Shown piece after piece: positions 7,474 to 44,978 of a stretch of DNA of 46,995 nt. The stretch is taken from positions 1 through 46,995 of the forward strand of contig CAZFVC010000002.1 of assembly GCA_964522175.1 (NCBI GenBank). The letters run 5' to 3'. Source of the stretch: an uncultured Desulfurococcaceae archaeon (GTDB lineage Archaea > Thermoproteota > Thermoprotei_A > Sulfolobales > NBVN01). Position 1 is the first letter of the stretch, and each line of letters opens with the position of its first letter. A model generated the notes under the pieces. It saw nothing but the letters and a program-made list of their open reading frames with translations, was not told where the DNA came from and did no database searches. Made by a program: the position numbers and the translations under genes.

Positions 7474-7476
7474 CTC

Positions 7477-21455: not shown

Positions 21456-21511
21456 TTCTAAAAACAAATTTCTTTTTCATCACATGAACTAGAGTAAGCA
21501 GTGGTGATGCA

Positions 21512-23406: not shown

Positions 23407-23407
23407 C

Positions 23408-24394: not shown

Positions 24395-25406
24395 GCTTCT
24401 AGAGGTCATAGACCTAGCCAAATATTTCCCTATTAAAAGGGGTATACTGGGTAAAGTCATAGGGTACGTAAAGGCTGTTGATGGCGTGTCCTTCACAATA
24501 AAGGAGAATACTGTCTTTGCGTTGGTAGGGGAAAGCGGCTCCGGTAAGACAACCACTGCACGATGCATACTGAAGCTGTATCAGCCCACAAAAGGGAAAA
24601 TTCTTTTTCAAGGCACCGACATCACGAATTTAAAAGGTAAAGACTTAAAAAAATTCAGGAGAAACATTCAAGCAGTTTTTCAGAACCCTTTCCTTTCGTT
24701 AAATCCGCGTATGAAAATCCAATCCATAATAGCTGAACCGTTGCAGACCCATACTAACCTCACGAAAAAAGAGATAAGGGAGGCTGTGGAGAACCTGCTC
24801 GAAAAAGTTGGTCTATCTAAAGGTATAGGGAAAAGATATCCATACGATCTTAGCGGAGGTCAAGCGCAGAGAGTGGCCATAGCTAGAGCCATAGCCCTCA
24901 AGCCTAAGCTAATTGTCTTAGATGAGCCCACCTCAGCACTTGATGTATCTGTCCAAGCTCAGATCCTTAACTTATTATCCGACCTCAAAGAAGATCTGAA
25001 ACTCTCCTACCTGTTGATATCTCATGACTTGTCGGTGGTTAGATACATAAGTGATTATGTAGCCGTCATGTATCTCGGAAAAATAGTTGAATTAGCACCA
25101 GCTGAGGAACTCTTCACAAACCCGTTGCACCCATATACTCAGGCATTACTCTCCGCGGTTCCCGAACCTGATCCGAAGCTGAAGAAGCTTAAGAAGAGAA
25201 TAATTCTTCCGGGAGAGCCTCCAAGCGCAATAAATCCTCCTAAAGGATGCAGGCTGCATCCTAGATGTCCTTACGTGAAAGACATCTGCCGCGAGAAAGA
25301 GCCAGATCTCTTCAATGTAGGTAACGAACATCTAGTGAGGTGCTGGCTCGTGAAAGAAGCCTCCACCAACCCGCAGGCGGAACAGGATCAAAGACCTTTT
25401 GAATAA
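24387..25406 (+). CDS. ABC transporter ATPase (DppF/OppF-like), whose last codons read into an IS remnant
   Basis: Walker A GESGSGKTT, LSGGQAQR and VLDEPTS. ATG 24387 overlaps the upstream stop (ATGAGTGA). After the family-typical end (HLVRCWL), the frame continues for 18 codons through tnpB-derived DNA. Confidence 0.85.
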   Translation: MSELLEVIDLAKYFPIKRGILGKVIGYVKAVDGVSFTIKENTVFALVGESGSGKTTTARCILKLYQPTKGKILFQGTDITNLKGKDLKKFRRNIQAVFQNPFLSLNPRMKIQSIIAEPLQTHTNLTKKEIREAVENLLEKVGLSKGIGKRYPYDLSGGQAQRVAIARAIALKPKLIVLDEPTSALDVSVQAQILNLLSDLKEDLKLSYLLISHDLSVVRYISDYVAVMYLGKIVELAPAEELFTNPLHPYTQALLSAVPEPDPKLKKLKKRIILPGEPPSAINPPKGCRLHPRCPYVKDICREKEPDLFNVGNEHLVRCWLVKEASTNPQAEQDQRPFE

Positions 25407-27854: not shown

Positions 27855-27984
27855 TATTCAACGAATTAATATTTTCAGGGGGGAAGTAATTAATACTTAG
27901 GGATATTGAGTGTGAGGCCTATATAGATGTTTGGATGAAGGGCGTTTCGTGGAGAATCCTAATGACTGCTTCCAAGGAGCAACC

Positions 27985-28570
27985 ATGTTAATGAGTGGGC
28001 AGCAAAGGATTAAGCTAAGTAAACTGATCTCAGGACCCCTACGCCATTTCTCCCACGAGGCAGGCTTACTTCCTGATAAGGAGGGTTGGGTACACATCAA
28101 AGACTTGGTTGGAGGGATCAAGGAAAAATGGAGGAATAAGGAAATTTACGCATGGGTAACTGAGGAACACATAAAAGCTGTTGCACTTCTGGACCCGAAG
28201 GGGAGATTCCAAATAAAGGGAAAGAAAATCAGGGCAGTATATGGCCATAGCTATCCAGTTGAAGTGAAGTATGATGAAGATCAAGCATTCTACCCATTTA
28301 TTTCATGGGACCCCGTCACGCAATATCCGCGACATTCTTAAAGAAGGTCTTAAACCAGGGAAAGATCATGGGTTCACCTCACCACCGATGAGTCGCTGGC
28401 TGTAGGAACAGGGAAAAGATATTCGAGAGAAGTTGCTTTACTACATATAGATGCTAAATTGCTTAAGAGCTCGTGGAATTAGAGTCTATAAGGCGGCAAA
28501 GAAAGTTAGGTTAGTTAAGTATGTTCCTGTAGAATGTATTGAAAAATATGAGATTATTGGAAATGTATAG
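27985..28570 (+). pseudogene. kptA: RNA 2'-phosphotransferase (Tpt1/KptA) gene interrupted by three single-nucleotide frameshifts
   Basis: Tpt1-like sequence is spread over alternating frames. Frame 1 runs to about 28299 (LSKLISGPLRH...IRAVYGHSYPV). Frame 2 covers about 28298-28368 (LFHGTPSRNIRDILKEGLKPGK). Frame 1 covers 28369-28479 (WVHLTTDESLAVGTGKRYSREVALLHIDAKLLKSS). Frame 2 covers 28475-28570 (GIRVYKAAKKVRLVKYVPVECIEKYEII). Confidence 0.8.
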
Positions 28571-30707
28571 ACCCCACAATGCTAAGATCTGGGTAGGTTA
28601 TTGCCGCTATACCTTCCTGAGATACTGCATATAGAGTATCATGTATATACGCTGTTCTAGATGCGTAATGATCCAGCTCGACTGTTCCCAACAGTTTGAG
28701 AGATTCATCATCTATTTTAACTACGAATAGCATGCTTCCCTTATAGAGTTCACCGCTTTCCTTAAAGACACCCAACACAGGAATTGCTAAATAGTCTTCC
28801 ACAGGATTCAGCAGGAAAGCCTTATGATCTCCCAGAACCGGTGACCACGCCCACTGCTCAGTCACCCTCAAACTCGAAACTTCCTTAATATTCTCGAGGT
28901 CACTAACATCGAAAAGAGATACTTTAACTCCTTTAATCCTGCCATTTTTGTCTGCATCCAAGCCAACCCCTATAAGGTAATGATCTCCATACGGGTGCAG
29001 ATACTCGGAATACCCTGGGATCTTAATATATCCAATAATCTCTGGTTTGCTGGGATCAGAGAGGTTGATAGCAAAGAGAGGATCAACTCTCCTAAAGGTC
29101 ACTAAGAACATGTAATCTCCCATGAATCGAGCAGAGTAGATAGTTTCTCCAGGCTCTATATCCTCAATAGCACCGACCACCGATAAATTCATGTCTAATA
29201 CATACACATTATTGCTTTCTTTGAACTGCGGGTAAGGAATTTTAAGTCCTTCCCCTTTCATATCTTCAGGTATCTGAACATCCATAAGTTCAACCTCCTT
29301 TATCCTGCTCACAGTGGTCGCTATCCTGAAATAGTCATTATATTCGTCCATACTGAATTGATCTGTTACCCTGCCTGGCACTTTTCCGTAAGCAGCCAGT
29401 ACGCTGTCAGTGCCTTTAATACCGATTCTATAAATCCGTGTAATCTCCCTTGGTACCCCCTTAAAGTATGTGAGGAACTGGGTAGCAACGAACTTGGCCA
29501 GCTCTCTCTGTTCTTCCGGAGTTAGCGTTTTCCAGTAACTGGCTAAAATATCAGTGATTTCCATATATTTTCTCCATTTAGGCATTGATTCATTGCTCAA
29601 TATCATCACTATTTTCTGTGCGGTTTCTGGCGGAAGCTTAGGCAAAACAGCGTCTCTTATGAAGTCGGTCATTTCACCCTCAAAGTCAAACCATTCTGTA
29701 GAAAGGATGTATATGTTTCCTTTGCTCATATAGATCCACTGAGGGTACTGGAGAAGGAATGAAGATACATCCCTTTCACCAGTTACGGCATTTATTGCAA
29801 GGACGTTTACATAGATAGGGAAGAGAACATCATCATTCTTAACAGCCTTAATGTCCTCAACATTTATCTCCTTCCCATCCAACATCGGGAGTAAGATAGA
29901 CTGGTTAGGTCCGTACACATCGTCAGTTGTTATAACATACACTACATTATTCCAAAGTCTTGAGTCCCTGAAATTACCTGAGACAGTTGTCTTCTCCACT
30001 AGCTCCGGTTTCGACCTATCAGATATATCAAACACCATTACAGTAGTGTTAGGCCTTACATATTGTGGGGGAGCTATACCTCCTATCTCTGCACACAGGC
30101 ATCTAATAATGTAGGGAAGCCTTGCCGTAGTTATTAAAACCAATCTATTGGCTTCAGGAATAACGTAGAGACCTATAACCGTTGTGTTAATCAGCGATAT
30201 ATTGGAGACTATATGCATCTCATTCGGAGGATACACCTCAGCAATATACACTACCGATGTTGAGGTAGAGTTACTCCATTCTTCCCTCCCTACGATATAG
30301 AAGAACTTTCCGTCACTTTTGAAGAAGTCGATCTCATCGATTCCTGCTACCTGTACATTAGTCACTGAATACCATGCAGATGCCTGATTAAGCGAAGGCG
30401 TTCCAAAGGAGGAAGCTAGTTTAGCATCCAATGCATACCTCACTGTCGTAGTCATAACGACCTCTGGAATGGGGGCCGCTGATAGAGTGGCTACATGCTC
30501 TCGAATGAAAGCCTCTAAATCTTCCTCAGTCTTGAAGTTTACCACGTCAGGCAACTCATGTATTAATTGATCGTTCGTCCCTCCGGGGGTTGTGGCCGGG
30601 GGTGTTCTAAACCCGATAAGCCCAGTTGCCAGGGACATTACTAGACCCAGAATTACGAGCATGGCTATTAAAGCTGCTCGACCGTTTGTATAACCTGTTT
30701 TCATCAT
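28554..30707 (-). CDS. Secreted/anchored beta-propeller domain protein (Beta_propel family, COG4880-like)
   Basis: 717 aa with an N-terminal signal/anchor. The C-terminal region SARFMGDYMFLVTFRRVDPLFAINLSDPSKPEIIGYIKIPGYSEYLHPYGD is characteristic of that family. Confidence 0.75.
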   Translation of the reverse strand: MMKTGYTNGRAALIAMLVILGLVMSLATGLIGFRTPPATTPGGTNDQLIHELPDVVNFKTEEDLEAFIREHVATLSAAPIPEVVMTTTVRYALDAKLASSFGTPSLNQASAWYSVTNVQVAGIDEIDFFKSDGKFFYIVGREEWSNSTSTSVVYIAEVYPPNEMHIVSNISLINTTVIGLYVIPEANRLVLITTARLPYIIRCLCAEIGGIAPPQYVRPNTTVMVFDISDRSKPELVEKTTVSGNFRDSRLWNNVVYVITTDDVYGPNQSILLPMLDGKEINVEDIKAVKNDDVLFPIYVNVLAINAVTGERDVSSFLLQYPQWIYMSKGNIYILSTEWFDFEGEMTDFIRDAVLPKLPPETAQKIVMILSNESMPKWRKYMEITDILASYWKTLTPEEQRELAKFVATQFLTYFKGVPREITRIYRIGIKGTDSVLAAYGKVPGRVTDQFSMDEYNDYFRIATTVSRIKEVELMDVQIPEDMKGEGLKIPYPQFKESNNVYVLDMNLSVVGAIEDIEPGETIYSARFMGDYMFLVTFRRVDPLFAINLSDPSKPEIIGYIKIPGYSEYLHPYGDHYLIGVGLDADKNGRIKGVKVSLFDVSDLENIKEVSSLRVTEQWAWSPVLGDHKAFLLNPVEDYLAIPVLGVFKESGELYKGSMLFVVKIDDESLKLLGTVELDHYASRTAYIHDTLYAVSQEGIAAITYPDLSIVGSIHFQ

Positions 30708-30797
30708 CGAATATCACCGTGGTGTATTCGGCAGCGTTTTAAATATCCCTATACATTAGAAACACTCTTCGAAACACTAGTCTCAGAGATCGAAAGT

Positions 30798-31616
30798 TTA
30801 GAACGCTGGATTACACCCAACATCATTGAGAGCGCAAAGCTTAATGATTTCTTCCTCCACCCGCTTCCTCCATCTCGCTGACAATGACTTCTTAATTACG
30901 TCACCTAAAACATCTTGAAAGCTTCTAAGAGATTCCTCCACACCAGGTCTTAAGCGAAGCCAGTCATAAATCAGAGTTGATTCCGTAGCCGATGCTATCT
31001 CTATTACAGATTTAAGTGTGCTGTGATCATCATTCACACTGGGAATAATAGGACCCATAAATATCCAAGTAGTAACGCCTTCTTTAGATAGCTTCTCCAA
31101 AGCCTCCACTCTCCCCTTAGGTGAGGGCGCTCTAGGCTCTATTACTGACGCCACTGAAGAGTCAAGAGTCGTTATTGTGAAACCGACTTCAACCAACTGA
31201 GGGTTTGTCAGTAAAATATCTAAGTCTCTGAGAACTAAAGGGGACTTTGTTTGAATATCTACCCGAAATCTATGGGAGAGAAGAACCTTCAATGATCTCC
31301 TCGTCAACATTTCTTTCTTTTCTATAGGCTGGTAAGGGTCTGTAATAGTCGATATTCCAACGATTCCCTTCTTTTTTCTGCGGACCTCTTTTCTTAGAAC
31401 ATCCACAATATTTTCCTTAATGTATATCACCTGCCCCCAGTTTTGGGCAGCATCCTTGTATCTAGTGTAGGCTCTAGCATAGCAGTATATACAACCATGG
31501 TAGCAGCCAGCATAAGGATTGAGTGCGTAATCAATGTCTGGGAGGCCACTCCTTGATAACGCTTGCTTAACCTTAATTCTCCTATAGATTGGGACTTTTT
31601 CACTGTGCATAATCAT
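30798..31616 (-). CDS. Radical SAM protein, SplB / 'DNA repair photolyase' (COG1533)-like
   Basis: NPYAGCYHGCIYCYA is the Cx3-like cluster motif typical of this subgroup. 272 aa. It overlaps the 3' end of the Nre gene. Confidence 0.7.
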   Translation of the reverse strand: MIMHSEKVPIYRRIKVKQALSRSGLPDIDYALNPYAGCYHGCIYCYARAYTRYKDAAQNWGQVIYIKENIVDVLRKEVRRKKKGIVGISTITDPYQPIEKKEMLTRRSLKVLLSHRFRVDIQTKSPLVLRDLDILLTNPQLVEVGFTITTLDSSVASVIEPRAPSPKGRVEALEKLSKEGVTTWIFMGPIIPSVNDDHSTLKSVIEIASATESTLIYDWLRLRPGVEESLRSFQDVLGDVIKKSLSARWRKRVEEEIIKLCALNDVGCNPAF

Positions 31617-32826
31617 AGAGACTTCTCATCCCCTTTAACCTACTCAAGATGTGTGACCTCCTCCACCAAATCTCTACTGGAATTCTCGTCACTTTCGAAA
31701 GAATCTTTTCAACTTCCTCTAAGCTGCTTACCCTGATAGGTCTCTGTGAAAACATTTCCCTAATGCTTTCCCTAACGAACCAAACTCCTATAGGAAGGTT
31801 GAATCCTTCATATATTTCCCTGTAAAGAACGGCAGTAGCCTTCCTCTTAGCTTCATGAAGAAGGTACTCAGCCGTAGGCAGTCTGGAAGCATAATAGCAA
31901 CCACCGATGTCTGGATACTTGGTTCTTCCAGCAACCCCTTCCCAATCTGCCTCTATGCTGACCTCTGGACCTTTCGGGTTCCAAGTACTTCCAGGAAACC
32001 AAGCCTCCATCCACTCGAACGACCATTGTCCAGGAATCAATATAGCAACGAATAAGTTATCATGTTTCCGCAATGTGAATATCTCTATACTTCCAAGCTC
32101 AGGAAGGTACTTAATCTGCTTAATCAAGCTTTTAGAAATAATATCGTCCACTGCTGTAATTGACCACCTAGTAGGCACAAACCTTCTTCTTCTCTTCCCT
32201 AACCCACCTACAGAGAAAATCTTCTGTATCCGTGACACAGGTATATTCTCCCTATACAGCTTCACCACGGCCTCATCAGCCTTGAGATCTCTATCATAGT
32301 AAACTCTCTCGACATGCCTCCCAAAAGATGGATTATCCTCAAGAATAACCCTTCTCAGAGGAGCCCCTGGACCTACGGGAGGTACTTCCTCACTGAGTTC
32401 GACGCCGCCTCTTATAGGTTTCTTCAATACAAGTTCGACGCCTACAGGCTTTTCTGATAACGCAATCTCCTGCAAAAGCATGGCGACTCTGGACTCCGTA
32501 TCTGTAACTTTCAGTCTAGTTACTCCTCGCACCAGGCTGAGCCTCATTGCCAAAAGCTCCTCAAGGGAAAGTTCTGACCATTTCTCAGGATAATCAAAAA
32601 TCTCGGTATCTCCCTTGGCAGGGGGGAGCGAAGGGCCAACCTGAATATAGGGATATCCTCTCCATCCAAGAAAAACTGTGGGAGGAGAATTACCTTCTAT
32701 GCTTACCCTCCTAGAAACCGTCATTAATCTCTCACTAACACGGCTCCTAACGAGGATAGGGCAATATGTTAGACCACAGAGGTGCTTAGTCCCCCTGCAT
32801 CTAAGGCAGAGATTCCTTGAAATCAT
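31600..32826 (-). CDS. nreA: Nre-family protein (archaeal NreA-like DNA repair factor)
   Basis: 408 aa. The Cys-rich N-terminus LCLRCRGTKHLCGLTYCPILVR and overall size are recalled as typical of Nre_N/Nre_C proteins. The C-terminus MRSLYDYAQ is PIP-box-like. Confidence 0.55.
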   Translation of the reverse strand: MISRNLCLRCRGTKHLCGLTYCPILVRSRVSERLMTVSRRVSIEGNSPPTVFLGWRGYPYIQVGPSLPPAKGDTEIFDYPEKWSELSLEELLAMRLSLVRGVTRLKVTDTESRVAMLLQEIALSEKPVGVELVLKKPIRGGVELSEEVPPVGPGAPLRRVILEDNPSFGRHVERVYYDRDLKADEAVVKLYRENIPVSRIQKIFSVGGLGKRRRRFVPTRWSITAVDDIISKSLIKQIKYLPELGSIEIFTLRKHDNLFVAILIPGQWSFEWMEAWFPGSTWNPKGPEVSIEADWEGVAGRTKYPDIGGCYYASRLPTAEYLLHEAKRKATAVLYREIYEGFNLPIGVWFVRESIREMFSQRPIRVSSLEEVEKILSKVTRIPVEIWWRRSHILSRLKGMRSLYDYAQ

Positions 32827-33989
32827 CCTAATATAGCCCCCTCTTTCCGCCCCATTCTTCTTAATGCAGCCAATACTTTATCTCTCAACCCAAGATTTTC
32901 ACGGAGAAGTTTATTCAGCCTCTCAAGTTTCTCCTTATCAGAGACCTCAGTACATACATCACTTACTGCCAGCTCTGGTAGTTCTTTGCATAACCTCCCT
33001 AAATTGTCTGATCCTCCCCGACCTTTTTTCCATCCGCGTCTATAAGTTTCCTCATATTCCTCTCCAATCCCATATGATCCTACCTTAAAGAGGAGAAAGA
33101 ACAGTGTGAATAAAAATATATATGCAAGAACCAGCCGGAAGGGAGGTGAAGACTCTAAGAAACTATTAAGGAGGAGCCCGGCCCTAGCTGGATTCAGTAA
33201 ACCTGCATAAATTTGTTCTGTCGAATACCCGGAGACTTCCATATCAGCTAAAGTCAGTGGGCGCATCCTATAATGAGTTGCGTCAACAAAAACTATACCT
33301 GCAGAGTCTCCGCACCCTTCCTTTAGAATAGCTAACAAAAGCTTTACCTGAGGATTTAAGGGGGTTAAAGGATTAAGTGCTGAGTTAATGAAAACAGAGC
33401 CGTCGCTTATTACAAATATTTTACTTCCATTATACTCCTCAATAACTCCAAACACCTTCTCTCCATACCAGATGAAGACATTTCCATTAATAGGGTGCAA
33501 CGAAGACGTGTAAGAAAGAGTAATCCTGCCTGAAAAATCACCGACTTCTGCATTTACCTGGAAAATCGGTCTCTCGTCAACAATAACGATTTCTCCATTA
33601 ATTCTCTCGGGTAAACCCATCTGTTGAAGTATTAAGTTACTGTAGGTGCTTTCATCAGCAATAATTAAGTTTAATTTATTTCTCCTAACAAATCCTGTCA
33701 GAATCTTAACATCTTCCTCATTCCATAAAATCTCTGGGGAGTTTATGATCACGAAACCGCATTCCACACTAGAAGGATCTTGGACTGTTCTCCAATCTCT
33801 AACCACCTCAACTTCCCACCCATTAGACTCAAGGAAATTTACCAGCGTCGTAGTTCCGTCGAATCCTGGATTAAGAGGTGAAGCCCCTACTTGCCCTATC
33901 CCTATCCCTTCCCCGATGGCGAGGAAACCCAGAAAAAGAAGCGCCACTATAAAGAAGGCTAATTTCTTACTCTTCACTATGATTCTCAC
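32823..33989 (-). CDS. DUF4350-like exported protein with a C-terminal TM and cytoplasmic tail
   Basis: 388 aa with a signal/anchor, an extracytoplasmic domain, then a late TM (LVLAYIFLFTLFFLLF). Assigned mainly from its context in a MoxR/DUF58/DUF4129 locus. GTG start. Confidence 0.4.
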   Translation of the reverse strand: MRIIVKSKKLAFFIVALLFLGFLAIGEGIGIGQVGASPLNPGFDGTTTLVNFLESNGWEVEVVRDWRTVQDPSSVECGFVIINSPEILWNEEDVKILTGFVRRNKLNLIIADESTYSNLILQQMGLPERINGEIVIVDERPIFQVNAEVGDFSGRITLSYTSSLHPINGNVFIWYGEKVFGVIEEYNGSKIFVISDGSVFINSALNPLTPLNPQVKLLLAILKEGCGDSAGIVFVDATHYRMRPLTLADMEVSGYSTEQIYAGLLNPARAGLLLNSFLESSPPFRLVLAYIFLFTLFFLLFKVGSYGIGEEYEETYRRGWKKGRGGSDNLGRLCKELPELAVSDVCTEVSDKEKLERLNKLLRENLGLRDKVLAALRRMGRKEGAILG

Positions 33990-34116
33990 CCTTACCCATG
34001 GAGGAGTATGAAACTAGTGCTAAGCCTCCTAAGAGGGCAAGAATAGATGCTACATATTTGCCTAGAACAGCCAGAGCAACGGATGCTGTAAAGAAAGCAA
34101 CAGAAATAACTGCCAT
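33967..34116 (-). CDS. Unlisted 49-aa hydrophobic micro-ORF
   Basis: MAVISVAFFTASVALAVLGKYVASILALLGGLALVSYSSMGKGENHSEE. It is below the track's size cut-off and fills the only gap in a tightly coupled operon. It starts 16 nt after the upstream stop and overlaps the downstream start by 23 nt. Confidence 0.35.
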   Translation of the reverse strand: MAVISVAFFTASVALAVLGKYVASILALLGGLALVSYSSMGKGENHSEE

Positions 34117-34132
34117 AACCTTTCTAAGAGCT

Positions 34133-34828
34133 TCACCATCCAAGACTGTTTAACACCTCCTCCATAAGCTTCAAGATTTCATTTATCCCCATAATATCTT
34201 CGTTCCTTAAAACAATGAGAGAGGCTACTGCGCTAAAAACGTACAGAAGCAACTCACCTTTTATTCCAACCTTACTCACAAAGTAAAAAACAATAGTAAC
34301 TATCAAACCACTTAAGATAATTGAAGCAAACATCCATGGAAACATTAAACCTAGTATCCTGACGAACAATGAAAAAAGAATGATTCCAACAATGTAACGA
34401 GGCACCGCCTCAATTACCTTTCCCGGAATTCTGAAGACATTAATTCTGAAGACTGTTAGAAAGTCTCTGCCTAGGGGTAGATCGCCTAGCCTCATATACG
34501 CTAAAGAAAGACCGAAACCTGCCAAAATACTCACAGATGTAATTAAAGGATACTCAATATAGGACACATCTCTTAGATAAAGAAGTAGGAAAAACAGAGA
34601 TGGAAGCAATAAAATCACAACCTCTTTGGAGACCCTTAATAGCCTCATCACTAGGGTTGCGGCAAGAGCTAAGGAGCATGCGAGGACAGTGAACTCAAGC
34701 AAACCAAGTGAAGCCCCTATTCCGATGGATGAAACCAGGATAACTCCGAAACTCCAGTATCTTCTAAAGTAAAGGAGGAGTAGAGAGGCCAGCATTAATG
34801 ACCCGATAACTGCACTCAGGAGAATCAT
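34133..34828 (-). CDS. Polytopic membrane protein
   Basis: 231 aa with about 6 TM segments. 4-nt overlap with the upstream gene. No motif recognised. Confidence 0.55.
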   Translation of the reverse strand: MILLSAVIGSLMLASLLLLYFRRYWSFGVILVSSIGIGASLGLLEFTVLACSLALAATLVMRLLRVSKEVVILLLPSLFFLLLYLRDVSYIEYPLITSVSILAGFGLSLAYMRLGDLPLGRDFLTVFRINVFRIPGKVIEAVPRYIVGIILFSLFVRILGLMFPWMFASIILSGLIVTIVFYFVSKVGIKGELLLYVFSAVASLIVLRNEDIMGINEILKLMEEVLNSLGW

Positions 34829-36363
34829 TTGGTATCCCCTAAAAGCTTCATTAATTTTGTGAACTCCTTGTAGCTAACCTCCATATTACCGAATCTATTT
34901 CGCTCGTAGGCCATCATCAAACCCTTTAGCCCCTTCTTCAAGTTCTCGCCAAGATTACTTCCTTCTGCAAGAATTTTTCCTACAATTTCTCTATGAGTCC
35001 ATGAAGATTGAATTTCAATGCCTAATCTGCCTGCTAAATCATAAATAGTACTCCAGAAAATACCTATTATTCCCTTACCCATGATAGGAACGTTTTCCTT
35101 AGTCTCACTAGTTAAGAGATTTTGGGGCCGCAAAGAACCTCTCCTAATTACCATAAAGGCCGCTGAAAAAATCGAAGCACCTAAGACTATTAGCAATATC
35201 CAAGCACTTATCGGAGGAATTCCTGAAGGTTCATTAGCCAGTATCTGCCCGCTAGATTTGTTAGCTAAGTAAATGAGAGTTTCCGGGCGTGCATAATTGG
35301 ATATACTCTGCTCATTCACTCTTGCAATTACCTCCTTCACAGTTTCAGGAAGCTTGACTACCACCAAACCATACTCAACAGAACGCTCCTCACCTATTCT
35401 AGCGATGAATCCTATTGAAGAACCTTTACCATTCGAGAGAAGCAACGCTAATATCTTAAGCTCCTCATCATTAATTTCAGGGGCTAACTCTTTATTCTCC
35501 TTCAAATACTTGATGAGCCTATCTAGATCAATAGTCTTAATTAGTTCCCTATTTCTATAGGCAGTTTCAAGCAGTGAGGGGTTAGATATAAAACGCCTAA
35601 GTATTTTCCGGGTATTCGGACCCAATTCCTCAAGCACTATTAATGCCTTCAGGTAATCCTCGTTCTCCAAGCTTCCCTCTTTTGAAATATTTTCTTCAGA
35701 TATGCTGAATGAAGCTAGAAGCGACCCAATAACAATTGAATAATCTCGTGAGGCCCTAATTGATACATTCATAAGTATTTCCTGAGTAAGATTAGATAAA
35801 TCCATGACTGTCTGCAGCTCCTTTACTAGGGGGGTAAAGTAAGCGGGATTACGTAACTTCAGGAAATGAATAAGAACCTTAAGTTTAGAGGAGCTGTAGT
35901 CTAATTTTCCTTGAGAGATCAGTTCCCTAAGGAAGGAAGCGATCTGATAATAGTTCTCGCTATCTGCCTTCTTAATTCCTTCCTCAATCAGTTTAGCAAC
36001 TTCCTCGCCAGTGATTAACGTCTTTTGATGTGATAAGATCTTAAGGGCCTTGAGCAGTGCCCCCGAGACTAAGTAGGGATCTTCGTAACCATTAAGAATG
36101 TTCTCCAGCAGGCTGGAACATACGTCACTCACTGATTCCTCATTTCCAACCGCTAGATAGTTGACTAGCATCCTATACTCTTCCCCATGGCCAGTAGCGT
36201 TTAACCAATCAAGAACAATAGCAGCCGCCGAAATCTCCTCCACTACCTTTCTTGAAATGTTTGGGGAATGCCGAATAGGAATATCGGCGGCCTTAGCCCA
36301 ATAACCGCATAGGCTGAGGAGCAATATGAGTGCCAGAGTAATGCTTAGGAGCCTCCGCACCAT
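34825..36363 (-). CDS. Exported helical-repeat protein with a TM and a C-terminal DUF4129-like cytoplasmic domain
   Basis: 512 aa with a signal peptide, a long extracytoplasmic region, a TM (ISAWILLIVLGASIFSAAFMVI) and a tail ...SWTHREIVGKIL...LMMAYERNRFG resembling DUF4129. Confidence 0.45.
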   Translation of the reverse strand: MVRRLLSITLALILLLSLCGYWAKAADIPIRHSPNISRKVVEEISAAAIVLDWLNATGHGEEYRMLVNYLAVGNEESVSDVCSSLLENILNGYEDPYLVSGALLKALKILSHQKTLITGEEVAKLIEEGIKKADSENYYQIASFLRELISQGKLDYSSSKLKVLIHFLKLRNPAYFTPLVKELQTVMDLSNLTQEILMNVSIRASRDYSIVIGSLLASFSISEENISKEGSLENEDYLKALIVLEELGPNTRKILRRFISNPSLLETAYRNRELIKTIDLDRLIKYLKENKELAPEINDEELKILALLLSNGKGSSIGFIARIGEERSVEYGLVVVKLPETVKEVIARVNEQSISNYARPETLIYLANKSSGQILANEPSGIPPISAWILLIVLGASIFSAAFMVIRRGSLRPQNLLTSETKENVPIMGKGIIGIFWSTIYDLAGRLGIEIQSSWTHREIVGKILAEGSNLGENLKKGLKGLMMAYERNRFGNMEVSYKEFTKLMKLLGDTK

Positions 36364-36414
36364 AACCGTTCGGTTAATATAGTGTTTTAATAATAATATC
36401 TTTAGATTCCGGGG

Positions 36415-37359
36415 ATGATATTGCTGAGGGAATTAGTGGATAAGGTAGTGAAGGCTTCCTCCTCAGTGCTTGTGGAGAAGGAGCGTGAAGTTACACTCAT
36501 TACCCTAGCAATCATAGCTGGAGGGCATGCCTTAATTGAGGGAGTTCCTGGCATAGCAAAGACGCTTAGTGTTAAGGTAGTTGCTAAAGCTCTGGGGCTG
36601 ACCTTCAGTAGAATTCAGATGACGCCGGATATGCTCCCATCTGACATTATCGGCACTAAGATTATTGACCCGAGAACAGGTGAGGAAAGACTGCTTATAG
36701 GTCCAATAAATGCCAATATAGTTCTGGCAGACGAGATAAATAGAGCCTCCCCCAGAACGCAGTCAGCTCTCTTGGAAGCTATGCAGGAAAGGCAGGTAAC
36801 GATAGAGGGATTAACCGTGAAGCTACCTGAGCCATTCTCAGTAATAGCTACAATGAATCCACTAGAATTAGAAGGCGTTTTCCCGCTTCCGGAAGCTCAG
36901 CTAGACAGGTTTTTCCTTAAAATTAAGGATGTAGGATTAAGTGAAAGCGGGCTTAAAGTTCTGTTGAAGGAGGGCCTAGAAAAGATTGAGGAGAAATACA
37001 GAAAGATGCAAAGCGTATCCAATAGTGAGGAAGTGCTTCAAGCTAGGAAGGACATTGAGAAAGTCTATGTAGATGGAGTCCTCCTTTCGTATATAGCCCG
37101 CATAGTTAGGAACATAAGCTCCCAACCCTCAGTCAGGGCTCCTGTATCCCCGAGGGCTGCCGGAATGTTACTCACACTCTCAAAGGAATTCGCTATAATT
37201 GACGGAAGAGATTACTTAATACCGGATGACGTTAAGAAAGCAGCTATTCCCTCCTTATCACACCGAATATTCCTGAAACCAGAGTTCCTCGCAGAAGGCT
37301 TAACAGGCGAGGAGGTCGTTAAGAAAGCACTTGAGTCAGTGGAAGTGCCCCGGCCGTGA
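36415..37359 (+). CDS. moxR: MoxR-family AAA+ ATPase
   Basis: Walker A EGVPGIAKT, Walker B/sensor VLADEINRASPRTQSALLEAMQERQVTI, and ATMNP...LPEAQLDRF. These are textbook MoxR motifs. Confidence 0.9.
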   Translation: MILLRELVDKVVKASSSVLVEKEREVTLITLAIIAGGHALIEGVPGIAKTLSVKVVAKALGLTFSRIQMTPDMLPSDIIGTKIIDPRTGEERLLIGPINANIVLADEINRASPRTQSALLEAMQERQVTIEGLTVKLPEPFSVIATMNPLELEGVFPLPEAQLDRFFLKIKDVGLSESGLKVLLKEGLEKIEEKYRKMQSVSNSEEVLQARKDIEKVYVDGVLLSYIARIVRNISSQPSVRAPVSPRAAGMLLTLSKEFAIIDGRDYLIPDDVKKAAIPSLSHRIFLKPEFLAEGLTGEEVVKKALESVEVPRP

Positions 37360-38657
37360 AAGCAGAGATCAAAGTGAAGAGAGTGAACACCTCTGGTCTT
37401 CTAATCCTACTCCTTACAATTACTCTCCTTATAGGTACCGGCCTAAGCGGAAACTCCCCCGTAGGAAAGATACTTATAATTGTGGGAGGAAGTTTGGCGA
37501 CACTACTAGGCGGTATCCTAGGACTTCTCAAAATCATTAAACCGGAAATCGAAGGAGAAACAGTAACCGAAACAGCTATCTCCACACTAAAAAGAGGAGA
37601 AGTCGGCAAGACCCTAGTAAAGATTAGGAGTCCAATACTAAGGTTAATGCGTCCCAACATAGTTAAGCTAGAGACGGATGAAGGAATTCATATACTAAAT
37701 AAAACCATAGCAAAAACAGGTGATACATTTCTCGCGAATTTCTCGATTAAAGGAGACACAGGGCTTCATATTCTAGGGCCATTGTATCTAAAGGCATGGC
37801 TCGGAGGAGATTTAATAGAAATAGAGATGGAGATTCCTCTAACATTAAGTGTTAAAATACTTCCTGAGATACCTAAAACAATTCCCATGAGATATGAAAC
37901 CCGAAAATTAATTGCCGGGATAGTGCTAACTAGAAGAAAGGGTAGAGGTGTCGAATTCCTCAGCGTTAGGGAATATGTCCCTGGAGATGATATCTCAAGG
38001 ATTGACTGGAAAGGATCCTTAAGAAGTAGAAATTTGATTATTAAGGAATTCGAAAAGGAATCTCTCGAAACTTTAGGCATCGTTCTAGTATTGAGTGATA
38101 GTAACTTCACAGGTAGAAGACCTTCATACTCAATAATGGCTGACTATGTGCTTGCCTTGGCTAATTCACTGCTAATTTCTGGACTGAAATTAAGGATGGC
38201 TATAGTCACTGAGAGAGGTTACCTAATAACTGAAGAGTGCTCTGGAAGAAGGGATATTTACCGAATTACTGGAGCTTTAGGATCAATTGAGTGGCCTAAA
38301 GAGATTGTGATAAGCTCGTCGCCCCTGAAAATAGCATCATCGTTAGTGCTTGAAAAGATAGCATCGCTAACTGAGGGACCTCTCCTCATCTTCACTGAAA
38401 TTGCCCGAGATGAAGAAATGAAAGCATTAGAGAGAATGCTTCAGGTGTCCACAGTAATTAGGCATTCCGTACTCATTTTCCTCTACACCCCAGAGCTCCT
38501 GAGACTTATCAAGGGAGAGTTAGAGGAGAATGATCTTCAAAATCTAAGATCATTCTTGAAATCATCAGCTGCTTTAACAGATAATCCAAGAATAGAGATA
38601 CTGCTAAGCAGACCTGAGGATGTAGCGCACCTAATTGCGCATGAAGTCCTTATCTGA
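37356..38657 (+). CDS. DUF58-family protein (MoxR partner, degenerate VWA) with N-terminal TM segments
   Basis: VREYVPGDDISRIDWKGSLRSRNLIIKEFEKE is the DUF58 signature. 4-nt overlap with moxR. Confidence 0.85.
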   Translation: MKAEIKVKRVNTSGLLILLLTITLLIGTGLSGNSPVGKILIIVGGSLATLLGGILGLLKIIKPEIEGETVTETAISTLKRGEVGKTLVKIRSPILRLMRPNIVKLETDEGIHILNKTIAKTGDTFLANFSIKGDTGLHILGPLYLKAWLGGDLIEIEMEIPLTLSVKILPEIPKTIPMRYETRKLIAGIVLTRRKGRGVEFLSVREYVPGDDISRIDWKGSLRSRNLIIKEFEKESLETLGIVLVLSDSNFTGRRPSYSIMADYVLALANSLLISGLKLRMAIVTERGYLITEECSGRRDIYRITGALGSIEWPKEIVISSSPLKIASSLVLEKIASLTEGPLLIFTEIARDEEMKALERMLQVSTVIRHSVLIFLYTPELLRLIKGELEENDLQNLRSFLKSSAALTDNPRIEILLSRPEDVAHLIAHEVLI

Positions 38658-38707
38658 CTCTCCGTAGAAGGATTTATTTGGACTAAAATTAATCATAATC
38701 GAGTGTA

Positions 38708-39079
38708 ATGATGTATGAAGTTCTGAAATCGACTGAAGGGGAGGACCTAATTAAAGGAGACGTTCTAAGGACTTTATACCTTTTCTCTGGAATCCTTTGG
38801 TTTCCTGAGCTTTATGACGAGTATGTGGGCTTCGTCCGAACCTTGGGAGATGAGCCAGCTGGGAGGAAAACTGTGGAGAAAGCTGTTAAGGAATTAGTTA
38901 AGGAGGGAATACTTAAGATAAAGGAGGGGATAAGAGCGACGGCATCGGCGAAAGGTGAAGAAACATTCCTTGTTTCATTCACTAAACCTCTCGAGGCTCG
39001 GCAGATACTCTCTACTGACAATAGGGTAGTAAAATATCTTGCCGAATGGAAAAAGTATGTTGGAGAACTTAGAAAATAA
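38708..39079 (+). CDS. Hypothetical protein, possible winged-helix fold
   Basis: 123-aa ORF. VEKAVKELVKEGILKIKEG resembles a wHTH recognition/wing segment. Weak call. Confidence 0.35.
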   Translation: MMYEVLKSTEGEDLIKGDVLRTLYLFSGILWFPELYDEYVGFVRTLGDEPAGRKTVEKAVKELVKEGILKIKEGIRATASAKGEETFLVSFTKPLEARQILSTDNRVVKYLAEWKKYVGELRK

Positions 39080-39136
39080 GGTAATCACTAAACAACTCTT
39101 TTAACTAAATCCCTAAAGAATTCCTAGGTAATTGAT

Positions 39137-39823
39137 TTGAGACTGCTGCTGCTTGCAGACATACATGGAAGAACCACATCACTTAGACAGACTTTGATGA
39201 GGGTTAGAGACATTGAGGGTGTGCTTGTAGCTGGAGATATAACTTCCTATACAGGAACCCACTGGGATGAAGTTATCAATTTACTTTCAGAATGGTGTGA
39301 AGACAACGGCTGCACAGCGTATGTAGTTCCGGGAAATGCTGATCCGAAAACGATTATGAGGGTTAAGAAGGAAAAGGTGAAGATACTGCATATAGCTTTG
39401 GAGCCATTTCCTCCATATGTTATTGGAGGGATTGGAGGAGGTTTAGGGTTTCCATTTATGGATATCCCTAGACTTAACGATGTGGAATTGACTCTATATG
39501 TTAAGAGGTTTATTTCCTCCTACGGCCCGGGATTAGCACCTTATTCATGGATATTACTCACACATACACCTCCCTACGGAACTAGGCTTGACATACTTTA
39601 TACTGGAGAGCATGTGGGGTCACATGGAATAAGGTCACTTATCGAGGAGAAAAAGCCTCTTCTAGCGGTCTCTGGACATATACATGAATCTCGAGGCATT
39701 GAGTGCTTGGGGAAGACCGTAATGGTTAATCCAGGACCTAATTACAGAGGATACTTTGCTGTGGCTGAGATTGAAGTAAGCAGCGGAAATGTTGATGTTA
39801 CTCTTATGAAGAACTCACCTTAG
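39137..39823 (+). CDS. Calcineurin-like metallophosphoesterase
   Basis: LLLADIHG, VAGDIT, VPGNAD and SGHIHE are the standard metal-ligand motifs. TTG start. Confidence 0.8.
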   Translation: MRLLLLADIHGRTTSLRQTLMRVRDIEGVLVAGDITSYTGTHWDEVINLLSEWCEDNGCTAYVVPGNADPKTIMRVKKEKVKILHIALEPFPPYVIGGIGGGLGFPFMDIPRLNDVELTLYVKRFISSYGPGLAPYSWILLTHTPPYGTRLDILYTGEHVGSHGIRSLIEEKKPLLAVSGHIHESRGIECLGKTVMVNPGPNYRGYFAVAEIEVSSGNVDVTLMKNSP

Positions 39824-41021: not shown

Positions 41022-42011
41022 CTAGGCAATAAAGGACAGTATTAATGCCAAGAAAGCAAGGCTATATCCATACTTCCATAGGAACCTTATTCCTTGATCA
41101 GGTCTAAATCTAGGCATAGAGTTATCGACCCATGCAATTACTGCCAGCACCACAAAATATTTCACTAAGACTACTATGGCACTCAACCACCAGTTCGCTG
41201 GATTAACAGGCCAAGGCCCTCCAAGGAATAACATCACGTAGAACAAAGGAAGGATAATCTTCTCTATAAACTTTATGAAGAATGCCATCGCCAGCCGGGG
41301 CCCACCTAATTCGGTGAATAGACCCCAGTAGAGCTCTGACTCAGCCTCTGGGAAGTCGAAGGGCTTAATCATTAGTATAGCCATCATACCTATGAACCCT
41401 GAGATTGCTGCAATAAACATTGTTATTGCCGAAAGGAAGGAATCTACCCACAGCCCGGCAGAAACTGTGGATGTCAAGTAGGCACTGTATGGAACAAGTG
41501 TGTGTCTAGCGGCCAGAATCACTGGCGTTAGCAACGAGGATATGTAGATTGGGTCTGCAGATATTAGTAACGCAAGATACCTTCCCGCAGCTATGCTTGA
41601 ATATGGGTTAGGTATAGAGAGTGCTAGATATGCTAATGCTAAAGGCGCCAGCAGTAGAATGTAGGCAATAACTACAATATCGTAAGGTGCCCAGAGAGGC
41701 TGTACAGCCAGAGGGGTCACTAGGCCTAAAGCTATTAAGGCACCGATCGCGAGAACAGCAATGATTAAAGGTGATTTCTTGAGTCCGTACCTATTCACCA
41801 CATCCTCCTTTGCAAGCAGCTTCAGGAAGTCGGCAAGAGGCTGCAGCACACCTGCAGGCCCTGTATACGTAGGACCTCTTCTATATTGAATCCTTCCACT
41901 GAGTTTTCTATAGTACCACTGAGTAACAATAACTAATACAATCATAGTTAACAGGCCAGGATATATTAACGACTGAAGCAGTATGCTTAACCATTCGTTC
42001 ATGGCCACCAC
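41022..42011 (-). CDS. NuoH/MbhM-like membrane subunit of the second complex
   Basis: RRGPTYTGPAGVLQPLADFLKL is the NuoH signature. 329 aa. Paralogue of 4445-5455. Confidence 0.85.
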   Translation of the reverse strand: MVAMNEWLSILLQSLIYPGLLTMIVLVIVTQWYYRKLSGRIQYRRGPTYTGPAGVLQPLADFLKLLAKEDVVNRYGLKKSPLIIAVLAIGALIALGLVTPLAVQPLWAPYDIVVIAYILLLAPLALAYLALSIPNPYSSIAAGRYLALLISADPIYISSLLTPVILAARHTLVPYSAYLTSTVSAGLWVDSFLSAITMFIAAISGFIGMMAILMIKPFDFPEAESELYWGLFTELGGPRLAMAFFIKFIEKIILPLFYVMLFLGGPWPVNPANWWLSAIVVLVKYFVVLAVIAWVDNSMPRFRPDQGIRFLWKYGYSLAFLALILSFIA

Positions 42012-42370
42012 CTCAACACTAGAGTAACTGCCACTATAACCACAAGGAGTAGGTAGGCATAAACATACCAGTCCCTAAGGAAGGCCTCAGACGACCTGCT
42101 TAAGGTCCTGGAAACCCCTCTCCAAGCCCTAGAAAGTATGTCAACTATTACATACGAAATCGGTGGGGTTTGAACCTCCTTAACCTCCCAACCCGAGACA
42201 ACAGGATAATACTTAAGCTCGTCCTCCTTTTCCTCTACAGGCCTGCCCCCATACCTCTGGAACAGTTCGTAGAAGATTACGTAAACTAAAACTCCCAGCA
42301 GTGCGGTTAGCCCTGTTATTAGGAGGACGAATCCTTCCGCGGAAAACATTAATGAAGCCATCCTTCTCAC
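41999..42370 (-). CDS. Small two-TM subunit, MbhI-like (second complex)
   Basis: 123 aa with a TM-loop-TM layout. Same relative position as 5449-5838. Confidence 0.45.
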   Translation of the reverse strand: MRRMASLMFSAEGFVLLITGLTALLGVLVYVIFYELFQRYGGRPVEEKEDELKYYPVVSGWEVKEVQTPPISYVIVDILSRAWRGVSRTLSRSSEAFLRDWYVYAYLLLVVIVAVTLVLRWWP

Positions 42371-42888
42371 CTCTCAAAAATAAGCTTAGCCCATTCCTCA
42401 AACTCCTTCGATATCTTCTCCCTTGCTTCCTCATCTTCCGTCGTTTCAGCAAATAGCCAATGAACGAAGAGGGCTTTCCCTTCATCATCTACCTCCAGAG
42501 TCACTGTTCCAGGGGTATTAGTGATGGAGTTAGCAACTGTGACAATGCCGAAATCCGTCTCTAGGCTGTGAGGAACTCTCACAATAGCAGGCTTTATGTT
42601 CATATTAGGACTTAAAATGGCTTTAACAACGCTCCAATGCGCCTTAGCCTCAATAATTGTGAAGTACTTGACGAAATACGCTAGGAGCATTGCCAGCCTC
42701 TTTAGAGTGAGTTTTCCAGTGTCCTGAATCCATTCTCTGGAGAATATGTATGAAACTATGAAGGCGCTAATCAGACCTAGGATGAGCTCAGTTATTGATA
42801 TAGCACCAGTGTAGACTATGTAGAGACCTAGCAAAATAAGGGAAAGAATGAAGAATCCGATAAATCTGCTTCCACCACTCTTACTCAT
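42367..42888 (-). CDS. MrpE/MnhE-like subunit (second complex)
   Basis: VANSITNTPGTVTLEVDDEGKALFVHW parallels 7477-7992. ATG 42888 (MSKSGG) is preferred over the track start at 42951. Confidence 0.7.
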   Translation of the reverse strand: MSKSGGSRFIGFFILSLILLGLYIVYTGAISITELILGLISAFIVSYIFSREWIQDTGKLTLKRLAMLLAYFVKYFTIIEAKAHWSVVKAILSPNMNIKPAIVRVPHSLETDFGIVTVANSITNTPGTVTLEVDDEGKALFVHWLFAETTEDEEAREKISKEFEEWAKLIFER

Positions 42889-43294
42889 TCTTCTCACCTC
42901 CCTCGATCTTTGAAAGGTTTTGGGTTCCGAACATTTCTCCAGCGGTAACACTTAGAGTAACTAGGAAGAGGAGAACAGCTAACCCGATGACTATTGCTGT
43001 AACTATTAAGATCTGCGGCAAGGGATCTACCGCAGATCCTGCAAATTCCTTTAGGGATGCCTGGCTCGGGTAGACGAAGCCCTCAATCACTCCTCCAGGA
43101 TATACGGGTGGCTGGGTTGCAGTAATTCTATACCCTATGAAAACTGCTAACATCTCTATAGCGTCAGAAAAGATTGTAAGCATAACTAATTTCTTTATCA
43201 TGTGGGGCCTGCATATCATTCCGCAGAGGCCCACAGCTGCCGTACCTATTATTGTTGCAAGGACGTAGTACCAGAGAAACTCTTCTACCATCAT
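42881..43294 (-). CDS. MrpC/NuoK-like subunit (second complex)
   Basis: 137 aa. The motifs PHMIKKLVMLTIFSDAIEM and DPLPQILIVTAIVIGLAV parallel 7989-8408. Confidence 0.65.
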   Translation of the reverse strand: MMVEEFLWYYVLATIIGTAAVGLCGMICRPHMIKKLVMLTIFSDAIEMLAVFIGYRITATQPPVYPGGVIEGFVYPSQASLKEFAGSAVDPLPQILIVTAIVIGLAVLLFLVTLSVTAGEMFGTQNLSKIEGGEKNE

Positions 43295-44091
43295 TTCTTA
43301 CCACCCTCCACTACAGCATCTAGCCCAAGCAGGGCTAAGGTGAACCCTGCGGAAACAGCTAGAAACTCCATTAAATTAAGCAGTATTAGAGTTCCCGCAA
43401 TAACTATCTCTCCCCACGGGGCATAAATCACGTCCGCATAGCCTAAGGGTACATAAGTTTTGGGCTGGTTAAGGAATAAGTAGCCCATTACCCCCTTCAT
43501 GAAACCAATTATCAGTGTGGAAATACCGATGAATGCTATGAGGATGAGGCCGGTCAGTCTTAAACTTAGGAGGCTGTCCTTCTTGAATCCAAGCTTTATC
43601 AGCCTGCTTCCTCCCATAGCCGCCAAAAGTATTAGCGGAGCCACGACAAAGATTGATCCGCCTTGGAAGCCTCCTCCAGGCGTCAGGTGGCCGTGAAGTG
43701 CTACAGAGATTGAAACAATCATGATGATCGGGGCCACAACTTTAGCTATTAGTTTAACTATTACAGTCATTTCCTTACTGGGTTCTGAAGGCTTAATCCT
43801 TTCAGCGAATATGTAAAGCGTCCCTATTATAGCAAGGAAGAGCACCGTCGTCTCGTAGTAGGTGTCAATGCCTCTCTGATCCCACAGAACCGAAGTAACT
43901 ATTTCAGGCGACCCGGTGTAAAGGAGGGATCCTTGAAGAGGTATCTCTGACAGGTATTTGTAGGCTAGGTAGAGATTAGATGTGAAGTCAGGGGAAACTA
44001 GGCCTAGCTGGACTAGTGCCACAGCAAATATTACAGCTAGCATTAGGGAAACAACAACACTTAACTTCATGTTACTCCTCATATCTCTCAC
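43291..44091 (-). CDS. MrpB/MnhB-domain subunit (second complex)
   Basis: ALHGHLTPGGGFQGG signature. ATG 44070 is an alternative start. Confidence 0.75.
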   Translation of the reverse strand: MRDMRSNMKLSVVVSLMLAVIFAVALVQLGLVSPDFTSNLYLAYKYLSEIPLQGSLLYTGSPEIVTSVLWDQRGIDTYYETTVLFLAIIGTLYIFAERIKPSEPSKEMTVIVKLIAKVVAPIIMIVSISVALHGHLTPGGGFQGGSIFVVAPLILLAAMGGSRLIKLGFKKDSLLSLRLTGLILIAFIGISTLIIGFMKGVMGYLFLNQPKTYVPLGYADVIYAPWGEIVIAGTLILLNLMEFLAVSAGFTLALLGLDAVVEGGKK

Positions 44092-44323
44092 CCTTCCTTA
44101 ATGCGTATAGAAGGATAACCGAGTTAATTCCTAATCCTATAGCTACATAGGCTATCAGAAGGTCGGGAGCTAGAAACGCCGTTAGAAGAAGTGCAAAGAA
44201 TGTGGATTCGATACCAGAAAGTATTATCGCTTTAAGTACGTCTCTCTGAAGTAGGGCAACAATGGAAGCTATTAAAGCAAGAGTTGAACCGATCGCTGCC
44301 AAAATTAATGGGATATGTATCAC
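44072..44323 (-). CDS. MbhD-like subunit (second complex)
   Basis: 83 aa. QRDVLKAIILSGIEST...APDLLIAYVAIGLG parallels 9219-9488. Confidence 0.6.
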   Translation of the reverse strand: MIHIPLILAAIGSTLALIASIVALLQRDVLKAIILSGIESTFFALLLTAFLAPDLLIAYVAIGLGINSVILLYALRKGERYEE

Positions 44324-44972: not shown

Positions 44973-44978
44973 CCATCC

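Follow-up and report, generated by a model that had tools for sequence, protein, structure and literature searches.

Does the chaining of genes by overlapping reading frames reflect a shared function, or can it arise where two independent gene sets happen to meet? This question is raised by a 46,995-nt stretch of DNA from an uncultured Desulfurococcaceae archaeon (contig CAZFVC010000002.1; the whole stretch is hereafter the window, and coordinates are positions in it unless a relative's locus is named), in which a MoxR/DUF58/DUF4129/DUF4350 envelope module runs directly into the genes for Nre, a family associated with DNA repair, and for a radical S-adenosylmethionine (rSAM) protein. The initial annotation had taken this coupling to suggest either a joint stress-response unit or a role of Nre and rSAM unrelated to DNA. 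Here, we show that the locus is a lineage-specific neighbourhood of two published gene sets and not a new combined system; neither set is new, because both have already been described (PMC4929162; PMC5898192). Most probably, the two are autonomous sets of known kinds that became neighbours by descent in one Desulfurococcales lineage and were secondarily compacted in the window species.

The eight open reading frames (ORFs) of the initial annotation, the divergent spacer and every overlap between them were all reproduced from the ORF list and the sequence. On the plus strand, moxR (36415-37359, 314 aa) overlaps the DUF58 gene (37356-38657, 433 aa) by 4 nt according to the ORF list. A divergent, A/T-rich intergenic region of 51 nt (36364-36414), which presumably holds putative promoters of both arms, separates moxR from the minus-strand arm, which comprises the DUF4129-like gene (34825-36363, 512 aa), a gene for a polytopic membrane protein (34133-34828, 231 aa), a small transmembrane (TM) ORF (33967-34143, 58 aa if read from the TTG at 34143 and 49 aa if the ATG at 34116 is the start), the DUF4350-like gene (32823-33989, 388 aa), the Nre gene (31600-32826, 408 aa) and the rSAM gene (30798-31616, 272 aa). 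In the sequence, the DUF4350 gene ends ...GGA TGA, its final ATGA including the start codon of Nre, and the Nre and rSAM genes overlap by 17 nt. The physical chaining of the six minus-strand ORFs is therefore real. Since 24 of the 47 same-strand neighbouring ORF pairs in the source genome overlap (with longest-ORF starts), overlaps are usual in this genome, and overlap alone is weak evidence of shared function.

Distribution of the Nre-rSAM pair and of the MoxR module

We compared 80 Nre loci from GTDB species representatives together with their 10-kb flanks, most of them labelled Desulfurococcales or Sulfolobales. The nearest locus (L001), from another uncultured Desulfurococcaceae metagenome-assembled genome, is collinear with the window over 16.8 kb at 95.4% nucleotide identity, and every other relative is at most 59% identical to the window Nre. 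The rSAM gene directly follows Nre, with an overlap of 17-41 nt, in 62 of the 67 loci that have enough downstream sequence, or in 63 when L019, where the greedy ORF set missed the rSAM gene, is included. Clustering of all flanking ORFs in the Nre loci returned no general neighbour besides rSAM. The Nre/SplB-like pair is thus near-universal in the sampled loci and is a self-contained two-gene unit.

The MoxR module is found much less regularly. Among the 58 loci with at least 5 kb of upstream sequence, 12 carry it upstream of Nre, and the other 46 are without a module nearby. The module-linked loci sit together in one part of the neighbor-joining (NJ) tree of Nre, corresponding to one Desulfurococcales lineage, and they fall into a group formed by the window and L001, a group labelled "Desulfurococcales archaeon" (L003-L007) and a Zestosphaera-like group (L008-10, L013-15, L018, L020 and L029). 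All 12 loci belong to this one lineage, and the adjacency was not found across independent lineages. The neighbourhood census therefore bears out the initial annotation in so far as the adjacency recurs in related genomes, but it confines that adjacency to a single lineage and shows the Nre-rSAM pair to be independent of this context.

A census from the module side, comprising 23 metagenome loci obtained by a DUF4350 alignment scan and 11 looked-up contigs, gave a consistent picture. It rests on these loci and contigs because the word prefilter of the protein search was too insensitive for the fast-evolving DUF4350 family: the DUF4350-like protein alone retrieved 2 proteins and a 15-sequence profile retrieved 8. 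Twelve of the 23 metagenome loci showed Nre-linked arrangements again, and the others had the same five-gene membrane arm followed by genes other than Nre. Across this census, the arrangements without Nre include DUF4350 followed by an opposite-strand winged helix-turn-helix (wHTH) gene and then a gene of the Beta_propel family (L090, L094-97), a convergent Beta_propel gene 13-62 nt from DUF4350 (L092, L098, L104, L108-114), a metallophosphoesterase (Metallophos) gene after DUF4350 (L105), and other, unrelated genes in that position (L101, L102, L107). In the assembly JBEVCG01, the module and the Nre-rSAM pair lie on different contigs (L107 and L017, respectively), with no module within 10 kb of the L017 pair. 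An extended synteny with the wHTH and metallophosphoesterase genes was also considered and discarded, as o123 is not homologous to the Beta_propel-adjacent wHTH (L090, L104, L108) and the metallophosphoesterases show no more than distant similarity.

In the NJ trees of DUF4350 and MoxR, the loci without Nre nest within Nre-linked clades. In the simplest history, the two units came to lie side by side once, in an ancestor, and some descendants later lost Nre-rSAM from this position. A rival history, in which a mobile cassette of two genes, Nre and rSAM, was acquired recently and landed between the DUF4350 and Beta_propel genes, would draw on the existence of DUF4350-Beta_propel neighbours without Nre, on an IS607-like element at the junction in L007/L083, and on the similarity of the rSAM protein to the "radical SAM mobile pair protein B" (TIGR04470, E = 4e-31). 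That similarity is sub-threshold, at 108.4 bits far below the cut-off of 410. We rejected a recent cassette origin, to which we attach the least credence of all the readings weighed here, because the groupings of the Nre tree mirror those of the DUF4350 and MoxR trees, the nested Nre-less loci indicate loss rather than gain, and no compositional break runs across the region; nor is there a recombinase among the family matches in the window region.

The junction between DUF4350 and Nre

We show that the junction between DUF4350 and Nre is the variable point of the block. The 4-nt ATGA overlap occurs only in the window and L001, where no TATA-like box is present. In the Zestosphaera-like group, 53-81 nt lie between the DUF4350 gene and Nre, and in L003-L006 a gene for a 60-aa 2x[4Fe-4S] ferredoxin, with spacers on either side, stands between the two. 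This ferredoxin gene lies directly upstream of Nre-rSAM throughout the subclade (L003:9498-9680, plus strand; L004:9497-9679; L005:4988-5170; L006:4209-4391; L007:7878-8060), and it is plausible that it encodes an electron donor dedicated to the rSAM enzyme. In L007 (positions 5868-7785; the same contig as L083), an IS607-like element comprising a 212-aa MerR-HTH serine recombinase and a 431-aa TnpB separates the DUF4350 gene from the ferredoxin and Nre genes, and continuity at the junction is therefore dispensable. In L013 (Zestosphaera tikiterensis), an in-place inversion has turned the Nre-rSAM pair around, and the rSAM and DUF4350 genes are convergent as a result.

Conserved A/T boxes in the aligned relatives, on which our promoter statements are based, suggest that the pair is expressed on its own outside the window group. 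A (C/T)TTAATA(C/T)T box is nearly invariant about 35-43 nt upstream of Nre in the Zestosphaera-like group (L008:9950-9990, with equivalents in L009, L010, L013, L014, L018, L020, L029, L084 and L099) and also precedes the inverted Nre of L013. Several genomes have this box flanked by GTGTTAAC direct repeats (CGTGTTAAC-N10-CGTGTTAAC), and the ensemble looks like a putative promoter with a possible regulator site. The L003-7 group carries a different conserved element, GCGCTCTTATTTCTCC. We infer from these boxes that Nre-rSAM has its own promoter in the relatives.

In the alignment, the window has a gap at the position of the TTAATA box of its sister clade. A Shine-Dalgarno (SD)-like motif, AGAGGGGG, lies at -18..-11 before the Nre ATG, as expected of an internal cistron. 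Since the spacer and the box have been lost and the DUF4350 frame now reaches the start of Nre (ATGA), Nre-rSAM is probably read from the envelope-arm transcript, which would make the module arm and the pair co-transcribed in the window species. We picture the ancestor of the lineage as having unit 2, the Nre-rSAM pair, just downstream of the DUF4350 gene under its own promoter; in the window species, a spacer of about 55-80 nt, TATA-like box included, would then have been lost and the DUF4350 frame extended into the Nre start, after which unit 2 would be translated from the transcript of the unit-1 arm. As overlaps are so frequent in this genome, such compaction requires no functional explanation.

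A different account of the window junction is that Nre-rSAM is still transcribed separately, from a promoter inside the 3' end of DUF4350, and that the overlap is without regulatory meaning. Promoters within upstream ORFs are common in compact archaeal genomes, every relative seems to have a promoter dedicated to the pair, and the 3' end of the window DUF4350 gene does contain two weak A/T-rich elements: counting from the Nre ATG, CATTAAGAA occupies -40..-32 and GATAAAGTA -56..-48. However, these candidate boxes are weak, the sister-clade box has no counterpart in the window, and the SD-like motif has the spacing of an internal cistron. We regard a separate promoter in the window species as possible but doubtful, and co-transcription as the probable state. 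As it stands, the locus is an unremarkable yet instructive case: where an archaeal genome is compact, tightly overlapping genes can link two unrelated operons, which comparison with relatives separates again.

Beyond rSAM, the chain probably ends at a 90-nt spacer (30708-30797), within which a TATA-like ATATTTAAAA precedes the start codon of the following gene by about 30-39 nt. That gene, on the minus strand (28554-30707), encodes a membrane-anchored Beta_propel protein (PF09826) of 717 aa, with a Pfam E-value of 6.5e-128, and its neighbours elsewhere belong to the observations that weigh against a neighbourhood kept by descent alone. First, the adjacency of the module and the pair is kept in three deep subclades, between which DUF4129 is about 20% and DUF4350 only 25-30% identical, so that the adjacency must be old; it also survived the inversion in L013, and its persistence exceeds that of many neutral neighbourhoods. 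Second, there are five arrangements in which a Beta_propel gene adjoins the module, the Nre-rSAM pair or the two together (window, L030, L046, L072, L090, L092, L094-98, L104 and L108-114), and the Beta_propel-Nre arrangements of L030/L046 and of L072 belong to Nre clades outside the module-linked lineage. Third, the Nre, DUF4350 and MoxR trees on which the inferred history draws are quick NJ trees without support values, and the module census reaches only those DUF4350 relatives that share two peptide patterns. The recurrence of Beta_propel could be the remnant of an ancestral neighbourhood of three parts that is decaying, or the outcome of weak selection that keeps the genes close. In L030, the Beta_propel gene is split.

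A rival reading makes the eight or nine genes one functional system of this lineage, perhaps a stress-response unit, in which a MoxR complex that senses or remodels the envelope would be deliberately co-expressed with, or act together with, Nre and rSAM; this pair may even have a substrate other than DNA, for instance a lipid or an envelope protein. Such a system would account for the long-lived adjacency, for the compaction of the window junction to an ATGA overlap with loss of the Nre-specific TATA-like box, and for the presence of the Beta_propel envelope protein beside Nre-rSAM even where the module is missing (L030, L046, L072). It would also have room in that the biochemical activity of Nre was unknown as of the review by MacNeill (PMC4929162) and its predicted structure has no PDB neighbour. 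Nevertheless, we consider one system unlikely. Most Nre loci have no module nearby, no fewer than four arrangements have the module but not Nre, and in JBEVCG01 the module lies on another contig than the pair. At the junction, the relatives variously have a spacer, a box resembling a promoter, an inserted IS element or convergent genes. Furthermore, Nre and rSAM are soluble (hydropathy gave no TM segment in either) and Nre retains a putative PCNA-type tail; haloarchaeal NreA is experimentally a DNA-repair factor, acting in a PCNA-dependent manner in the repair of mitomycin C damage (PMC4929162; see PMC7776575); and DUF4350 occurs in several bacteria too (PMC5898192), whereas Nre is reported to be archaea-specific (PMC4929162). 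The joint unit or non-DNA role put forward initially is therefore not upheld by the independence of the published pair, by the restriction of the module linkage to one lineage, or by the variability of the junction.

A narrower version supposes that Nre-rSAM was recruited into the regulon of the MoxR envelope complex, in the window by way of its transcript, and that together with Beta_propel it couples lesion repair or rSAM modification to the state of the envelope. We hold this to be improbable, somewhat more so than the general form. Were such a composite reading true, it would link archaeal DNA repair to envelope status and constitute a true composite stress system. Two autonomous units, brought together once and compacted in the window species, remain the reading that we favour.

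Proteins of the two units

The family assignments of the initial annotation hold. The matches to AAA_3, DUF58, Nre and Radical_SAM are strong, and those to DUF4350 and DUF4129, sub-threshold in the window proteins themselves, are supported by the orthologues, by all of them for DUF4350 and by most for DUF4129. MoxR matches Pfam AAA_3 (E = 3.3e-58, 195.7 bits against a gathering score of 27) and AAA_lid_2 (1e-15, 57.5 bits), and its translation shows a Walker A motif, GVPGIAKT, and a Walker B motif, VLADEINR, giving it all the hallmarks of an AAA_3/COG0714 ATPase. In one metagenome contig, moxR is split into two ORFs (L082:4380-5305), by a frameshift or a sequencing error. The DUF58 protein belongs to its family (PF01882, 6e-10, 39.1 bits against a gathering score of 23.4), and its orthologue in L107 additionally matches VWA_2. 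Hydropathy places TM segments at residues 14-32 and 39-57, forming an N-terminal two-helix hairpin beyond which the protein is predicted to be cytoplasmic.

For the DUF4129 protein, the window sequence reaches 15.8 bits against a gathering score of 24.8 (PF13559, E = 0.015), and 7 of 10 orthologues match the family (best 1.9e-7). From the N- to the C-terminus, it comprises an anchor or signal, about 360 aa of ectodomain, a TM helix (388-406) and the putative DUF4129 domain, which is cytoplasmic; the motif FW...THREI...YE.xRFG, which follows this helix, is conserved in the orthologues. For the DUF4350 protein, the window sequence gives 23 bits where the gathering score is 30.4 (PF14258, E = 1e-4), and 10 of 10 orthologues match (best 6.5e-16). 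The protein has TM segments at 11-29, an N-terminal anchor, and at 286-304, after which comes a cytoplasmic tail (residues 306-388) that is poorly conserved except for C334 and C346, which are invariant across the three Nre-linked subclades. The two proteins had been described as exported; by hydropathy, both are bitopic membrane proteins with cytoplasmic tails.

The AlphaFold2 (AF2) model of the DUF4350 protein has an ectodomain predicted local distance difference test (pLDDT) score of about 80-93, and Foldseek related this ectodomain to GH35/GH42/GH164 middle, or beta-galactosidase-type trimerisation, domains (probability 1.0, E = 3e-4). The model confirms a flavodoxin-like, class-I GATase-like fold for the ectodomain, in line with what Makarova et al. 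2015 (PMC5898192) had obtained by HHpred, and supports the DUF4350 (arCOG01314-like) assignment. Of the remaining two proteins of the arm, neither the 231-aa polytopic protein nor the small ORF was assigned to a family in the Pfam search. The polytopic protein has about five TM helices and a conserved C-terminal EEVLxxLGW motif, and its orthologue holds the same position in all module loci. The small hydrophobic ORF is a conserved gene as well: a hidden Markov model (HMM) of its family detects it in 30 loci, in each of them immediately before the gene for DUF4350.

In the pair, Nre matches Nre_N (E = 6.4e-101, 338.1 bits) and Nre_C (3.2e-32, 111.1 bits), both above the gathering scores. Its N-terminal C4 motif (C7, C10, C17, C22) consists of Cys residues that are invariant in the relatives, and the start codon cannot lie further downstream because the first Cys of this motif is residue 7. 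Compared with the reference motif of PCNA-interacting (PIP) peptides, Qxx[LIM]xx[FY][FY], the C-terminal PIP-like tail MRSLYDYAQ has the L and one aromatic residue in register and no Q or second aromatic; the tails of the relatives share R-x-[LI]-x-[DE]-[YFW]. The protein falls outside the haloarchaeal NreA equivalog (NF041387), at 218 bits against a cut-off of 700. Its AF2 model is confident (pLDDT 90.6, predicted template modelling score 0.90), and Foldseek found no credible neighbour for it in the PDB (best E = 0.027, TM-score <0.2); the weak GyrB/MutL-type matches within that range were dismissed as not credible, and a profile search of PDB sequences with Nre found nothing. A confident Nre model without a structural neighbour in the PDB is in itself a useful by-product of the analysis.

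The rSAM protein meets the definition of the radical SAM superfamily (PF04055, 1.3e-15, 58.4 bits against a gathering score of 29.5) and has the cluster motif C38-x3-C42-x2-C45. Its best NCBIfam match is to PA0069 (NF033668, 1e-52), at 179.3 bits against a cut-off of 360; besides mobile pair protein B, it falls short of Rv2578c (NF038135, 128.2 bits against 430) and of spore photoproduct (SP) lyase (TIGR04070, E = 8e-5, 21.7 bits against 400), and no relative among PDB sequences was found at E<=0.01. Judged by these scores, it is a COG1533-type, SplB-like relative outside the PA0069, Rv2578c, mobile-pair-B and SP lyase equivalogs.

Taken together, these features suggest how each unit might work by itself. 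In unit 1, hexameric MoxR and the membrane-tethered DUF58 protein would work from the cytoplasm on the DUF4129 and DUF4350 tails and, with the polytopic and small TM proteins, assemble or remodel an envelope complex, as Makarova et al. 2015 proposed; the DUF4350 ectodomain protein would be GldG-like. In unit 2, Nre, with its C4 metal site and PIP-like tail (R-x-L-x-[DE]-[YF]), may bring rSAM to DNA or to PCNA, where rSAM would repair a lesion by radical chemistry, with the ferredoxin of one clade as a plausible reductant. The near-universal Nre/SplB-like pair and this ferredoxin provide a handle for reconstituting Nre/rSAM chemistry.

The surroundings of the locus are of other kinds. On one flank, positions 19734-25406 of the plus strand hold an operon of ordinary make-up for an Opp/Dpp-type ABC transporter of peptides, with SBP_bac_5, two permeases and two ATPases, and on the other, an Mrp/Mbh-like membrane complex (NADHdh, MnhB, Complex1_49kDa) is encoded at 41022-46988 on the minus strand. 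At 27931-28567 on the plus strand lies a gene for a Tpt1/KptA RNA 2'-phosphotransferase, of which a 136-aa ORF spans only the N-terminal half of PF01885; the remainder of the 221-aa orthologue in L001 aligns to the window in a different frame, and the window gene seems to be frameshifted, as a pseudogene or by an assembly error. Rfam and tRNA scans of the window gave no match, and PADLOC reported no defence component in it, its sole match being a 17-bit generic radical SAM.

Comparison with known systems

The module corresponds to the arCOG01314 (DUF4350)/MoxR/vWA neighbourhood, for which Makarova, Galperin & Koonin (2015, PMC5898192) predicted a complex that serves secretion or remodels membranes. 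The co-occurrence of arCOG01314 and MoxR that marks this neighbourhood is found here, with DUF4350, a COG0714 ATPase and a vWA-type protein in one divergent cluster, and the likeness extends to the build of the DUF4350 protein, whose flavodoxin-like ectodomain lies between a signal or anchor and a C-terminal TM helix, to the MoxR partnered by a DUF58/vWA protein, and to additional membrane proteins. Where the 2015 complex has an Ig-like/S-layer-like protein of the arCOG02884 type (COG4743, pfam07760), for which the ORFs from 28554 to 39823 gave no Pfam match, the window set contains the bitopic DUF4129 protein, the polytopic protein without a family and the small TM one. The DUF58 domain also differs in that it is predicted here to be cytoplasmic rather than secreted. 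The conserved five-gene membrane arm, together with the recurrent Beta_propel neighbour, refines the 2015 prediction for the archaeal MoxR/DUF58/DUF4129/DUF4350 module.

Bacterial MoxR-DUF58 clusters, for example those of actinobacteria, carry transglutaminase/DUF4129 and DUF4350 proteins, often with a transglutaminase core or FN3 proteins. Like these clusters, the window combines AAA_3, DUF58 and a DUF4129-like membrane protein in a recurrent set. The bacterial clusters differ from the window in their frequent transglutaminase core or FN3 proteins, which are absent here, and in that they are not known to be linked to Nre. The bifidobacterial PFNA operon (PMC8430577) is a further cluster of this bacterial kind.

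With SplB, the window rSAM protein shares the radical SAM family, the CxxxCxxC motif and a distant similarity; it is much shorter, far below the cut-off, and not an SP lyase. The closest precedent for unit 2 is the published Nre/SplB-like pair. According to MacNeill 2016 (PMC4929162), Nre genes (NreB) adjoin, and sometimes overlap, SplB-like genes in "a number of" genomes, an adjacency for which Giroux & MacNeill 2016 is the source as cited in that review. The window pair resembles the published one in its Nre_N and Nre_C domains, its C4 motif, its PIP-like tail and the overlapping COG1533/SplB-like gene downstream, and it departs from it in that the tail is without the canonical Q and second PIP aromatic and the protein is not an NreA equivalog. 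Two further differences lie in the relatives: nearly every sampled locus has the SplB-like neighbour, which the review describes for NreB and from "a number of" genomes, and one subclade has a small ferredoxin gene ahead of the pair.

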